IMG/VR virus record: IMGVR_UViG_3300021400_000621
Location: 1-64,000 of that record
Length of the DNA: 64,000 nt
Source of the DNA: a virus
Taxonomy: Duplodnaviria > Caudoviricetes
Strand: one strand, 5' to 3'
Part shown: one piece after another, positions 2 to 63,998 of the stretch
Layout of the letters: each line of letters opens with the position of its first letter
Position numbering within the stretch: position 1 is the stretch's first letter
Made by a program: the position numbers and the translations under genes
The notes under the pieces: model-generated
The model's input: only the letters and a program-made list of their open reading frames with translations
What the model was told of the DNA's origin: nothing
Database searches by the model: none

Positions 2-424
2 TGGTCAATAGATGATTTTATAGATGTAGACTTCAATACATCTGAGTTTTGTGTTGACATAGAAAATGAATGTGTATTTATTCCTCTTAATCCAAGAGAA
101 GAAGAAAGTAAAATGTTTATGGATTTTATTGGGGAAGAATATGGAGAATACGATATGGATGCAGATGTACTTGGTATACTGCATGAGATAGGTCATATCT
201 TTACATATGATGAAAGTCTTGCCAGAGCAAGAGAGGTAAAAGTATTAAGATTAAGATTAGATTTTGATGCGGCCGCATCAAATTTAAAAGAATATAACTT
301 TGCATATTTTAGGATTCCCGCAGAAATCTATGCTACGGATTGGGCTGTTGATTATTATAATATGAATCGCGAAAAATGTGATGCTTTGGCAGCAGTACTA
401 AAAACAGAAAAAGGGATAGCATAA
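2..424 (+). CDS. Partial HExxH metallopeptidase-like protein (5' truncated by window)
   Basis: Frame is open from position 2 through the tracked ORF 113..424; contains ILHEIGH. Confidence 0.55.
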   Translation, partial: WSIDDFIDVDFNTSEFCVDIENECVFIPLNPREEESKMFMDFIGEEYGEYDMDADVLGILHEIGHIFTYDESLARAREVKVLRLRLDFDAAASNLKEYNFAYFRIPAEIYATDWAVDYYNMNREKCDALAAVLKTEKGIA

Positions 425-435
425 AGCTATCCCTT
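411..435. terminator. Bidirectional intrinsic terminator
   Basis: AAGGGATAGC-ataaa-GCTATCCCTT perfect stem between convergent genes, flanked by A and T tracts. Confidence 0.8.
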
Positions 436-441
436 ATTTTT

Positions 442-786
442 TTATGATTCTACTTTAAACCATAAATCACCTGTTGATTGATTAGTTGGTTGTGTTTTAC
501 TAACAATCGCAGAAAAGGTGCTAAAATTACTATCATTGGTTAAATCGCTTGTTTTACTTGGAATAGTTGGTTTATTCTTAATATATGCATCGGATGAAGT
601 AGAGGTAACGTTCCAATCTGACTGCACATTTACTTCTGCGCCTGATGCAATGCCAGATAATTTATTCTTTTCTGTTGTTGTGTAGTTATTATCCGTATGA
701 ACATAACTGCTATCTACAACTGCATTGTTGTCTTTGATGTCATAAGTGGTTCCATTCGGTAATTTAACTGAGCTAATATAAGCCAC
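442..786 (-). CDS. Virion fibre/decoration protein
   Basis: HTDNNYTTTEKNKLSGIASGAEVNVQSDWN...AYIKNKP fibre-type motif; N-terminus resembles that of 801..2060. Confidence 0.6.
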   Translation of the reverse strand: MAYISSVKLPNGTTYDIKDNNAVVDSSYVHTDNNYTTTEKNKLSGIASGAEVNVQSDWNVTSTSSDAYIKNKPTIPSKTSDLTNDSNFSTFSAIVSKTQPTNQSTGDLWFKVES

Positions 787-800
787 TTAAATCACCTCCT

Positions 801-62100: not shown

Positions 62101-63296
62101 TATTGTTGATAATAAGGACTTTTACTATCAACTCTTGCATCTTTTGCAAACCAATAAAAACTTACTTTCTGTTCACCATAATTAACCTTTTTTCCTTTAA
62201 CTCTTAAATCAGCATAAAGTTGTAAAGATTCTGGTTTAACTAATCCACCATTAGTATAGAAGAATCCACCTAATGGAGTTGTTATTCTTAAAGCTAATCC
62301 TTGTAATTCTTCTTCGCTAAGAGCATCAAGAAATTCGCATCTAATATTGGATATAATAATATCGGTAATGTTTGCATAGTATAATTCTCCAGAACTATTT
62401 TTTCTATATTGATACCACTCTTTTGTTATCTTATCATAAATACATTCATTGACATTAAAGGAAATGATGTTGCCTTCATCATCTTCAAAATGTTCATCTA
62501 TATAATTATACTGTGAGTTACCTGTTTTTTGATTAGGGAAATCTTCACAGAATACACTCACACTATCTATACTCGCTAAATGTTCAGAATCTATATCAAA
62601 AATAGCATATTGGTCACTTCCTGCTACATAATTATAGGGTTGACCAGTCATTCTATCTATATTTAAAGTATATTCTCTAAATACATAGGCTCCTGCGGCT
62701 GCAGCATCTTCATTGGACTTATAACTAGGATCATAGTATCTTGCAACTACTTTCACGCCATAGTTACCGCCACCTATTTTCTGAGCTGAATCTAAACTAG
62801 TTTTTAATGTAGCACCAACTAATAAATATTCAGTATCTTCTTTATAAGTCGTAATTGCTAAGTCATCAACAGCAACAATACCTTCAGCTAAGAGGTCTCT
62901 TTGATTTGTTGCAGCGTTATTAGATTTGTAACTCGCAAAACCGATAGAATTACTTTGTGTTAATACATTGGTACCAACCAAAGACATTCTATCTTCTGGA
63001 TTTAATACTGTCTGTGTAGAACTAGCATTTTTAGTTACCGGACCTAGAATATAAGGATCTTTTTCAAAATCGCTTGAAGGAATAACTACATATACTTTAG
63101 TATTCTTCGCATAACCTTTTAAATTTAAATCATACGCATAAAATGTACTATTTTGATATTTTACTTTATATTTGCCAATAGATTCATCAACTTTGTCAAC
63201 AATAGTCGCTCTAACTGTTTTGTCAAATTTGACAGAGGATACTTTGTCCGCAGCTAAAATATCTATACTGTCTAATAAATCTTTAGCTATACTCAT
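59112..63296 (-). CDS. Large tail tip/host-specificity protein
   Basis: 1394 aa; C-terminal Gly/Asn/Thr-rich GGNIGGWKI and GGTIGGWKI repeats typical of central fibre/spike proteins. Confidence 0.65.
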   Translation of the reverse strand: MSIAKDLLDSIDILAADKVSSVKFDKTVRATIVDKVDESIGKYKVKYQNSTFYAYDLNLKGYAKNTKVYVVIPSSDFEKDPYILGPVTKNASSTQTVLNPEDRMSLVGTNVLTQSNSIGFASYKSNNAATNQRDLLAEGIVAVDDLAITTYKEDTEYLLVGATLKTSLDSAQKIGGGNYGVKVVARYYDPSYKSNEDAAAAGAYVFREYTLNIDRMTGQPYNYVAGSDQYAIFDIDSEHLASIDSVSVFCEDFPNQKTGNSQYNYIDEHFEDDEGNIISFNVNECIYDKITKEWYQYRKNSSGELYYANITDIIISNIRCEFLDALSEEELQGLALRITTPLGGFFYTNGGLVKPESLQLYADLRVKGKKVNYGEQKVSFYWFAKDARVDSKSPYYQQYGGVGWRCLNNPVTGAGTNGIGFAADTYIKTINASDCPAYENFYKCVALFKQDNETTALSVITSVLNLTKEDVNNVWIYSSMGNDFTFNEGKTDLTCRINGATQEELDSYSYHWTRAIDGGSEELYQPEDTTRFRKDINISEAHYFVTYSCSVYDQDDNLVGTAAVTLNNGEPSGQFRLVLNNGTQVFKYNADGVSPASPSVDELDRIDLSTLALSFDIYNDKGQLVNLGEGQEKTRKAEIKWIWPSNSEENPNTQTEGFDSMLLPATITTDEQITPIYTFVRDSLESPSDGSFVERWAVVDQAQLSYNIQNTYDIEKTNNNIILEVDYQGQHLIATTNFTFTKEGELGTNGTKYTTRITPKSSTYSKIVIGHPNGLYGLTANGTYEKTDNMPFKVQIWDGGVNPLKEYQPNDSHLTWSTELDGRNISQYMTVNNTTDTISFTVNRPVTQNHTLKVTVNDTSISSQPFYAIYPLDLLQNLQYNINGGYRSCNYESDGTRSAFTQKPFVLTKVNGDEVDPSTITWMNTWGGRIYTDAIDIDTREPKAEAISTLSGYNNIIIEPPSYYIGTNVNNYITCSVDGTPVAVIPIEFYLNRYGLAAMNGWDGVSLKLNSNGTNYVLAPQMGAGKKESDGSFTGIVTGTSMEGGSQNTGLFGYKSGQRTIFLDANTGNATFGKAGVNQVKIEANGTGSIQGSGMTITLGSNPGISFTSGRFKVDKDGNLTATNANITGNITATYLTATTGGNIGGWKINPTSLTATSGGNTITLNSNGSLSGPHWSIANNGVATFSDVVITNGNTAAQDKTIISIGNRVGGTGGAFTVNNRGQVSASGATITGTITVNTLNATGGGTIGGWKIGSNSLSHGNFTLSASGNGQIKFGDGYLTSGGTSHGSHTGSSSGKLTSGAGSRHGAGYLASGNSNGDWRNVSEAQISMSHGKESYAYDVDYDTSTETWKDHDGNSHTIKYVTHVRLYTKDFYPITSTKFRTNNVLCQTGHW

Positions 63297-63312
63297 CCTT
63301 GTATCTCCTTTC

Positions 63313-63373
63313 GCGGCGGGGTCGCCGCAATCTTCTTTTATCTAGGTACGACGGAGCCCGGAGGCCCCGCCGC
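63313..63373. repeat. GC-stem hairpin element E4
   Basis: GCGGCGGGG...ATCTT-N5-ATCTAG...CCCCGCCGC abutting the RBS of 63296. Confidence 0.65.
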
Positions 63374-63392
63374 ATTTTCCTTTATATATAAA

Positions 63393-63998
63393 CTAGTAAG
63401 TTCTGCGATTACCACTCGCCCTTTGACTTGCTAGGTTAACTAATTCATTAAATGCTTGTTTAATTTCTCTTGCAGATTCAACCGCTGGGAAATCAGCATT
63501 AATAATAATCTGTTGTTCATTAGTAGTGCTATTATCTGCATTCGCAACTGAATTAAACAATCCGCCAATGGCACCACCAACTTGTGACATAGCCGCCGCC
63601 TTGAAGTCAGCAACTTTATCCATAACTTGGCTAGCTATCTGTGCTGCCGCAAGCATATTAGGAGCATCTGTTGAAGTTAGAACATATTCATTCGGATGAA
63701 CTACAGCCAGTTCAGCACCGCCGCCAGTCCAGCCGCCCTCATCATAAGAACTTAATTGTCTTAGTACCTGACTAATTGAATCTACATTCTCATCAATACT
63801 TCTAATATCTTCTCCACCAACTCCATATCTTGCTACACCAGTTGTACCATTTTGATAATATGCATTACCAAGTAATGTATTGGCAGTAGAATTAATTTGC
63901 GCTTCACTTAAAGCCTTATATTGTTCAACCACTTTAGCAATCGCATCAGCAAATTCTTGTACTTTATTGATAACATCACCATAGGATGTAATCAGTTT
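63393..63998 (-). CDS. Tape-measure protein C-terminus (partial)
   Basis: Frame open to the window edge; SYDEGGWTGG...LAVVHPNEYVL and IIINADFP.V typical TMP ending. Confidence 0.65.
   Translation of the reverse strand, partial: KLITSYGDVINKVQEFADAIAKVVEQYKALSEAQINSTANTLLGNAYYQNGTTGVARYGVGGEDIRSIDENVDSISQVLRQLSSYDEGGWTGGGAELAVVHPNEYVLTSTDAPNMLAAAQIASQVMDKVADFKAAAMSQVGGAIGGLFNSVANADNSTTNEQQIIINADFPAVESAREIKQAFNELVNLASQRASGNRRTY

Follow-up and report, generated by a model that had tools for sequence, protein, structure and literature searches.

Why does an AT-rich phage genome carry the G/C-rich word GCGGC and its complement GCCGC far more often than its composition predicts, and what might read this word? 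The question is raised by the IMG/VR virus record IMGVR_UViG_3300021400_000621, a phage record of 89,173 bp with a GC content of 34.1% that is estimated to be about 68% complete, and in particular by its bases 1–64,000, the stretch referred to in the following as the window. The window contains 90 copies of GCGGC and 73 of GCCGC, i.e., 163 GCSGC (S, G or C), compared to 18 per strand pair expected from a zero-order model. A first-pass annotation of the window had reported this over-representation from an eye count of about 80 copies in the first 35 kb; the exact count in this interval is 90, far above zero-order chance. For the whole record, the excess was evaluated against two null models of its 93 open reading frames (ORFs). 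In the first null, synonymous codons were shuffled within each ORF keeping the protein and the codon usage, and in the second the codon-junction dinucleotides were kept in addition. Coding GCSGC was observed 199 times compared to 59 expected under the first null (z = 21.7) and 94 under the second (z = 15.4), i.e., the enrichment persists in the kind of codon-preserving shuffle that the first-pass annotation had proposed as a check. GCG had been described as uncommon among the alanine codons, and it indeed accounts for 12% of them (GCS for 20%). Ala-Ala dipeptides are spelt GCS-GCN in 55% of the cases, compared to 13% in the phage SPbeta, in which GCS makes up 19% of the Ala codons, and Gly-Gly is spelt GGC-GGC in 20% compared to 2.4% expected. 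SPbeta-like Bacillus phages are the nearest cultured relatives (the phage's DnaE is 39.6% identical to YorL), and in 50 kb of SPbeta no excess of GCSGC was found (12 observed, 11–16 expected).

Longer words built on the same core are enriched as well. The NotI palindrome GCGGCCGC occurs 18 times in the record, compared to 0.7 expected under the first and 2.0 under the second null, and is found within genes in frames 0, 1 and 2. Twelve of these sites are located in the window, exactly where they had been listed with the claim of at least 12: at 269–276, where two overlapping facing copies encode Ala-Ala-Ala in frame 0, at 7269–7276 and 17329–17336 in frame 1 (Arg-Gly-Arg and Cys-Gly-Arg), at 35791–35798 in frame 2 (Arg-Pro-Pro), at 1492–1499, 13181–13188, 19563–19570, 36698–36705, 48456–48463 and 48820–48827, and at 27845 and 33568. 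CGGCCG is present 23 times compared to 2.1 expected, the word GCCGCGGC of the same composition as the NotI site is absent compared to 1.5 expected, and CGCG and CCGCGG are not avoided. Moreover, the 12-mer GCGGCGGCGGTG is exact at the four places reported for it, i.e., at 8809, 24961 and 34533 and as reverse complement at 40772–40783 on the minus strand. Phages usually purge short G/C-rich palindromes, whereas here one has accumulated and is kept at the cost of rare codons; in practical terms, NotI and EagI cut unexpectedly often in this DNA of 30–34% GC.

The enriched word is asymmetric. GCGGC followed by G at position +6 is present at 3.0 times the dinucleotide-preserving null and with any other base at +6 at 1.3 times, the base at −2 makes no difference, A is excluded at −1 as is T at +5 (0.7 times), and positions +7 to +9 are G/C-rich, giving the form B-GCGGC-V-G with S-rich positions up to +9 and T-GCGGC-N-G as the best form. 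The 5′ edge is sharp, an AT-rich upstream flank ending in T, and the word starts with a purine. The phage thus keeps a strand-asymmetric word 5′-(T/G)GCGGC(G/C/A)G-3′ followed by three more G/C-rich positions. The commonest extension, GCGGCG, is not palindromic, and the choice of codons within Ala-Ala follows the context, with GCG chosen before a codon that begins with G (47 of 64) and GCC after a codon whose second base is C (38 of 56). The extended form GCGGCNG accounts for 114 of the 163 GCSGC in the window (59 plus, 55 minus) and for 153 copies in the record (74 plus, 79 minus), compared to the 18 NotI palindromes. Along the genome, no arm-specific strand polarity of GCGGCNG was found beyond a mild sense-strand preference. 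About 134 clusters of copies are distributed over the 89-kb record, separated on average by 664 bp, corresponding to about 1.2 kb per strand.

The word is specific for a clade of phages. The relative G001 (47 kb, 76% nucleotide identity) shares the extended word, in a NotI-like variant that is richer in C at +5, and the more distant relatives G002 (113,778 bp) and G004 (136 kb, complete) carry a weaker, two-fold symmetric form, T-GCSGC-A. It is absent from SPbeta and from a metagenome-assembled genome (MAG) of 1.6 Mb and 26.5% GC, assigned to an 'uncultured Clostridium sp.', in which a 14.6-kb contig of a related phage (DnaE 62–63% identical) was binned. The word is therefore apparently not host-derived. 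G002 has the highest density of GCSGC (2.8 per kb) and spells 77% of its Ala-Ala as GCS-GCN; it contains almost no NotI sites and shows neither a rule for facing pairs (34 facing, 23 back-to-back) nor a preference for GCGGCNG. Because G002 lacks these three features, the core word follows at least two distinct grammars within the clade. The word might be used as a marker for this phage clade.

Several observations show that the cause acts on the DNA and is not a by-product of translation or composition. In every reading frame the word exceeds expectation (z from 3.3 to 14.6), encoding Ala-Ala in frame 0, Cys/Ser/Arg/Gly followed by Gly, or Arg-Arg, in frame 1 and reading nnG-CCG-Cnn in frame 2, and the enrichment is equal on sense and antisense strands. 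It even involves codon changes of several steps, as GGC-CGC is observed 9 times compared to 0.7 expected, though arginine is normally encoded by AGA. As an alternative, the excess might merely mirror the avoidance of GCWGC (W, A or T) by restriction of the TseI or BbvI type, a codon-pair bias or a local compositional heterogeneity. Under the dinucleotide null, no other 5-mer is in fact as depleted as GCWGC (118 observed, 169 expected), and the phage avoids many palindromes including GATC, GAATTC, GATATC and AAGCTT. However, GCWGC is the one depleted word among the one-letter neighbors, and its depletion is confined to frame 0, where GCWGC and GCSGC are synonymous spellings; the other two frames show it at the expected level or higher (GCAGC in frames 1 and 2: 6 and 7 observed, 3.7 and 5.3 expected; GCTGC: 1 and 6 observed, 1.5 and 2.6 expected). 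Because the depletion is limited to frame 0, the avoidance of GCWGC is the mirror effect and not the driver. Moreover, GGC-GGC, TGC-GGC, CGC-CGC and nnG-CCG-Cnn are enriched without having any GCWGC alternative, the equal enrichment on both strands excludes a translational cause, and the excess survives both the codon-usage and the junction-dinucleotide nulls. Explanations of this kind are very improbable and were rejected. The proteins show no sign of having been altered to hold the word: conservation of Ala/Gly compared to G004 is 44.6% at codons of the word, no lower than the 41.9% at GCWGC codons, and the excess of Ala-Ala (1.54) is similar to that in SPbeta (1.43).

The word is also retained between strains. 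The metagenome contig L040 (132,227 bp) is 95% identical to the phage over 17.6 kb and was compared over 24 kb of the contig. In L040 and L039, which diverge from the phage by 4.8% (by 11% at third positions), 41 of 48 GCSGC are found unchanged, seven are lost and five gained; these strain differences are unpolarised, i.e., the comparisons do not give the direction of change. In the 95%-identical strain, third-position G/C inside GCGGCNG is changed to A/T at 5 of 54 positions compared to 270 of 1303 elsewhere (p = 0.04), and context-matched G/C flanked by G/C is changed at 42 of 146 (p = 0.004). The first-pass annotation had suggested to look for conservation at synonymous sites in relatives, and it is found here. 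Copies without G at +6 are changed at 3 of 14 positions, like the background. At the larger distance of G001, 33 of 69 alignable copies are kept, and both ends are preserved in 4 of about 11 facing pairs. This retention fits selection as well as a site-specific fixation bias, without telling them apart. Selection or site-specific fixation bias on the DNA holds the word at about one copy per 0.6 kb, equally on both strands. The selected cis signal that the first-pass annotation had put forward stands as far as a signal at the level of DNA is concerned, based on the three frames, both strands, the multi-step codon changes, the retention and the polarity described below; the mimicry of Firmicute Chi sites and the phage modification protein that it had named as examples are not supported.

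The copies are arranged with a characteristic geometry. Within 100 nt, 55 pairs are facing (GCGGC..GCCGC), 27 and 29 point in the same direction and 5 are back-to-back, compared to 15.4, 8.5 and 8.4, and 4.8, respectively, in synonymous shuffles. At 51–100 nt, facing pairs outnumber back-to-back pairs by 22 to 4 (p = 5e-4). Adjacent facing pairs lie within 100 nt of each other in 34 of 53 cases and adjacent back-to-back pairs in only 4 of 52 (15 of 19 and 1 of 19 in G001), and therefore the genome reads as a series of facing units that are 0.3 to more than 1 kb apart, with a spacing of 3 to about 100 nt between the facing copies. This arrangement accounts for most of the one-sided GC-rich patches that had been described 3′ of GCGGC. 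The strand-aware profile of the GC content at third codon positions (GC3) is asymmetric around the motif and not flat: outside the motifs, GC3 is 0.35, 0.29, 0.28 and 0.26 over 3–61 nt on the 3′ side compared to 0.19–0.25 on the 5′ side and 0.206 genome-wide, it is back to background by about 90 nt, and the same is observed for sense and antisense GCGGC. The five patches given as examples by the first-pass annotation have a GC3 of 0.41–1.00 and their flanks of 0.05–0.36. The words enriched 3′ of GCGGC are CCGC, GCCG and CGCC, i.e., the partner word, with CCGC found 74 times 3′ of the motif compared to 11 times 5′ of it. A difference persists when the 4-mer cores are masked and only the 73 isolated motifs are considered (GC3 0.246 on the 3′ side, 0.185 on the 5′ side, p = 1.4e-4), which has the same sign without being significant in G001 and is absent in G002 and G004. 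The one-sided patches are real, but they consist mainly of the inverted partner word plus a small extra rise in G/C.

GC3 islands cover about 8% of the codons. Several of them show the facing layout directly: at 27836–27930 (GC3 0.65) GCGGC at 27842 and 27845, the latter within the NotI site GCGGCCGC, faces GCCGC at 27926 and both ends are kept in G001; within dnaE at 33552–33639 GCGGC at 33565 and 33568 (again NotI at 33568) faces GCCGC at 33635; and at 16261–16367 GCGGC at 16304 and 16307 faces GCCGC at 16363. The islands at 24955–24993 (0.85) and 34530–34574 (0.80) begin at the 12-mer, that at 8791–8868 (0.73) extends rightwards from it, and that at 40760–40801 (0.79) contains its reverse complement within the tyrosine recombinase gene. 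A further island begins at GCGGC 29753 (29747–29809, 0.76), and the NotI site at 13181 lies within the island 13034–13216. The island in dnaE recodes a segment of the gene and shows no insertion relative to G001 or L040. In general, the coding patches align without gaps to G001 and L040, by which in-frame palindromic mobile elements of the RPE, MITE or REP type were ruled out. Templated patches were likewise considered; the 3′ extensions share no long sequence beyond short common starts such as GCGGCGGCGGTGCT. Finally, hairpins formed by coding facing pairs were ruled out, as these pairs fold no better than shuffles (z from −1.9 to +2.2).

The word is probably read by something. As the most plausible reader we tentatively propose the phage's own DnaG-type primase, for which the word would be the start word, and we hold this assignment to be possible rather than established. 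The primase gene (26104–27186, plus strand) was recognized by a match to phrog_47 DNA primase (E = 4e-38) and adjoins the gene of the DnaB-type helicase (24049–25578, plus strand), the usual partner of a primase. The primase was ranked first because of the sharp edge from AT to GC with T at −1, the purine with which the word begins as primers do, and the G/C-rich stretch of about 10 nt that would stabilize a primer in AT-rich DNA, and because both strands are used about once per kilobase by a phage that encodes its own primase. In such a mechanism, the word would be read on single-stranded DNA by a factor of the phage clade. The template would be 5′-..GCCGC(A)-3′ with A as the uncopied 'cryptic' base, and the primer would start with pppG-C-G-G-C. 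The 8–10 G/C-rich nucleotides after the start might be selected for a stable primer in a genome of 34% GC, and sites would be needed on both strands every kilobase or so. Facing copies might be favored as two primer-stabilizing G/C stretches could then share the same costly rare codons, and the weak rise in GC3 to about 60 nt might be a by-product of further partial copies or of primer-proximal synthesis. Well-known phage primases offer a precedent: the T7 primase uses the template 5′-GTC-3′ (extended (G/T)(G/T)GTC) and the SP6 primase 5′-GCA-3′, in both cases with an uncopied 3′ base. Similar to these, the word proposed here would be read from a short stretch of template by the phage's own enzyme, the last template base on the 3′ side would stay uncopied, the primer would begin with a purine, and a site would be required roughly every kilobase on either strand; the GCCGCA of this phage ends in the GCA of SP6. 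In contrast to the T7 and SP6 sites, it is longer, G/C-rich over about 10 nt and clustered in facing pairs.

A number of points weigh against the primase. Known DnaG-type primases need only a trinucleotide, which is exceeded by a word of 7–10 nt. A fixed lagging-strand template would give a switch of strand preference along the genome, and none is seen; the strand imbalance of the word only follows gene orientation. The facing rule at 51–100 nt is not predicted by the sharing of a primer stretch of about 10 nt, the spacing of the clusters is only slightly more even than random (coefficient of variation 0.78 compared to about 0.85 for a null in which the 100-nt exclusion also applies), and SPbeta has a comparable replication module without the word. 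Furthermore, we know of no established case in which primase sites are over-represented by codon choice, and the link between primase and word is one that we infer from the sequence. If true, this would be the first phage primase, or other single-strand-tracking enzyme, that visibly shapes codon choice genome-wide. In a broader formulation, to which we attach considerable doubt, a clade of large AT-rich rumen and gut phages would carry an undescribed, strand-asymmetric genome-wide cis-element T-GCGGC-N-G, which selection would write into coding DNA at intervals of about 0.6 kb, in the form of facing dyads around G/C-rich cores, and which a replication or recombination enzyme of the phage would read. 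A search of the literature for GCGGC in phages returned nothing relevant. That the phage accumulates the word and keeps it implies that something reads it throughout the genome, in a group of rumen and gut phages that are abundant and uncultured. The asymmetry of the word and the grammar of facing pairs are concrete, testable constraints on such a reader, and finding it could reveal a primase specificity, a Chi-type signal of an uncultured Firmicute or a viral counterpart of HIP1.

Next to the primase, a helicase-nuclease might read the word on one strand as a Chi-like signal, either a host enzyme of the AddAB/RecBCD type or the RecD-like/RecJ-like pair that the phage itself encodes. Recognition would switch degradation to recombination and thereby protect the phage DNA, and both orientations would be needed since ends and breaks face either way. 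Known Chi sites are AGCGG in Bacillus subtilis, GAAGCGG in Staphylococcus aureus and GCTGGTGG in Escherichia coli. Similar to Chi sites and Chi-rich phages, the word is asymmetric, G-rich and of comparable length (7–8 nt, Chi sites 5–8 nt), frequent in both orientations, written by codon choice and retained between strains; it depends on G at +6 and not on −2, it shares the core GCGG with the two Firmicute Chi sites, and its informative flank is the 3′ side, from which such an enzyme approaches. Judged by geometry only, a break between two facing copies would be protected on either side. However, the mimicry of a known Firmicute Chi suggested by the first-pass annotation is not supported, as AGCGG is among the most depleted words (45 observed, 81 expected, z = −6); as A is barred at −1, GAAGCGG is excluded too. 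There is no strand skew at the scale of the genome (the 74 plus and 79 minus copies given above), and the MAG binned with the 62% relative contains 2 GCSGC in 76 kb, i.e., no enrichment, which argues weakly against a host-derived signal, the link being made by binning only. Moreover, the strength and the extended form of the word differ among related phages of the same habitat, which fits a phage-encoded reader better, and the logic of Chi does not predict back-to-back pairs at chance level. Taking both sides together, a Chi-like signal is unlikely. A two-fold symmetry is the starting point of another explanation, in which the unit is the symmetric site GCGGCCGC or the facing half-sites T-GCSGC-A and is made or kept by a dimeric DNA-binding protein or by methylation-dependent very-short-patch (VSP) repair. 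In E. coli, the Dcm/Vsr system leaves such a footprint, with CCWGG enriched and CTAG depleted. It is a precedent for a repair bias that enriches a word at the expense of its one-letter neighbor; here, neither Vsr nor a C5 methylase was found in five related records and no T-variant is depleted, as GTGGC, GCGGT and their complements occur about as often as expected and only GCWGC is low, in frame 0. The closer parallel is HIP1, GCGATCGC, of cyanobacteria, likewise a short G/C-rich octamer palindrome that is iterated together with its sub-words beyond chance, within genes, in all frames and in one lineage only (PMC4390886). In the model of Elhai, methylation-dependent very-short-patch mismatch repair drives near-cognate sequences to the site, and HIPs are linked to methyltransferases (Elhai, 2015; PMC4390886).

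The comparison with HIP1 is favored by the NotI site, far above expectation within genes as described, by CGGCCG and the absence of GCCGCGGC while CGCG and CCGCGG are not avoided, by the two-fold symmetric exclusion of A at −1 and T at +5, by the form T-GCSGC-A in G002 and G004, by the adjacent facing units with long gaps between them, by four intergenic dyads and by the link of HIPs to methyltransferases. However, the palindrome is not the unit of enrichment, which is the asymmetric half-word that is also found alone and in variably spaced facing pairs, the commonest extension is non-palindromic, and a facing spacing of 3 to about 100 nt is unsuited to a single dimeric site. The domains PF00145, PF01555 and PF02086, i.e., C5, N4/N6 and Dam-type methyltransferases, and PF03852 of Vsr are absent from the five related records G000–G004 (G004 complete, G000 about 68% complete), a statement that concerns phage records only. 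A phage-encoded mechanism of the HIP or VSP type would thus lack its enzyme, and the phage modification protein considered by the first-pass annotation finds no counterpart in these records. In contrast to HIP1, the word is found in a virus, with 34% GC. The dyad explanation is rather unlikely; if it holds, the word would be a viral counterpart of the still unexplained HIP1. A polar footprint of replication or repair without any selected function was considered as well, in which a nick or start at GCGGC is followed by G/C-biased short-patch synthesis or conversion in a self-propagating manner. The rise in GC3 is polar and decays over 60–90 nt, the pairs (facing, the two same-direction classes, back-to-back, 55:27:29:5) are near 2:1:1:0, the ratio predicted for new copies that originate exclusively in 3′ zones, and an HNH endonuclease gene adjoins the portal gene. 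However, third-position divergence on the 3′ side (0.117–0.135 in the 95%-identical strain) is as predicted from the G/C composition and gives no sign of a mutational hotspot, the residual GC3 excess is too small for the 6–11-fold bias in orientation, 55% of the Ala-Ala carry the word while the islands comprise a small share of the codons, and nicks on both strands at the 18 NotI sites would be double-strand breaks. The polar repair hotspot proposed earlier therefore retains weak support, from the polarity of GC3, against a patch that is mainly partner word and shows no excess divergence. A functionless footprint is improbable, and less likely than the primase, a Chi-like or a HIP-like reading.

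Outside of coding DNA, the word occurs in four intergenic 5-6-5 dyads GCGGC-N6-GCCGC, three in the window (42306, 45979 and 63313) and one at 73263 of the full record. In the late region, these dyads and a 67-nt hairpin are located just before ribosome-binding sites. The dyad at 42306–42321 has AGGACC as N6, that at 45979–45994 immediately precedes the ribosome-binding site of a late gene on the minus strand, and that at 63313–63328 is nested in a 61-nt facing pair ending at 63373. The hairpin at 58214–58280 has GCGGCGG/CCGCCGC at its base (dG −35, z = −6.2), is located directly before the ribosome-binding site of a late gene, is the only true hairpin among the tested patches, and both of its ends are kept in G001. 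These dyads and hairpins before late genes reuse the word and may have a separate role at the level of RNA. GC-stemmed intergenic elements before late genes were also observed at 42927–43066, 44581–44761, 58190–58286 and 63297–63392 of the window; they have a common internal core (TATCTAGAT, GTTAAAAACATC) and a GCCGC end just before a GGAG-type ribosome-binding site, and may be stabilizers of the 5′ untranslated region or processing hairpins. A YonO-like RNA polymerase was considered as a reader of the dyads; the candidate, an 859-aa ORF at 49764–52343, has no tblastn match in cultured phages.

Near-identical DNA of the phage is found in bovine gut metagenomes from seven studies, and 18 public runs contain the phage. 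Because the 95%-identical contig L040 is 132 kb in length, the full genome may comprise about 132 kb, which would be the size of SPbeta and agrees with the estimated completeness of 68%. The phage encodes GyrB, GyrA, an NAD-ligase, the DnaB-type helicase and the DnaG-type primase, furthermore RecJ-like and RecD-like proteins, a DnaE-type polymerase III alpha subunit (31533–35474, plus strand), a Sak4-like ATPase and a RuvC-like protein for replication and repair, and anaerobic NrdD and NrdG and a dUTPase for nucleotide metabolism. Other genes encode a tyrosine recombinase, GIY-YIG and HNH endonucleases, amidase endolysins and a DUF285 tail protein, and no tRNA genes were found in the 64-kb window. 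A cluster resembling RNA-repair genes at 6557–9171 of the window contains an RNA ligase (PF09414) and an AAA_33 kinase-like protein, and several metallophosphoesterases at 3215–4881 and 8629–9171 are part of it. The small HNH endonuclease gene at 83708–84064 of the genome (minus strand) is located between the portal and endolysin genes and near a terminase-like ORF, which is a packaging-associated HNH arrangement. The MAG that contains the 14.6-kb contig is a possible host lead for the clade, or else a binning artefact. No prophage relatives were found with a DnaE query in 401 genomes of its order; the genomes sampled from this order have only 0.8–1.3 Mb.

Some observations concern the sequence composition in general. 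Under the synonymous null for the whole record, palindromic restriction-type words are strongly avoided, as 5- and 6-mers containing GATC are at 20–35% of expectation and GAATTC (2 observed, 29 expected), GATATC (0, 26), AAGCTT (12, 38), CTGCAG (16, 40), AGATCT (5, 29) and TGATCA (9, 33) are rare, and runs of A6 are depleted (100 observed, 218 expected). Comparison of the window positions 22001–42000 to four public runs revealed strain differences of which about 88% are transitions; in one run, A>G (147), T>C (150), C>T (144) and G>A (134) were counted, and over this interval changes from AT to GC and from GC to AT are roughly equal in number. Finally, a second word, CATAGG/CCTATG, is enriched in the phage (52 observed, 16 expected, z = 11.9); it extends to ATAGGC and is unrelated to GCGGC.

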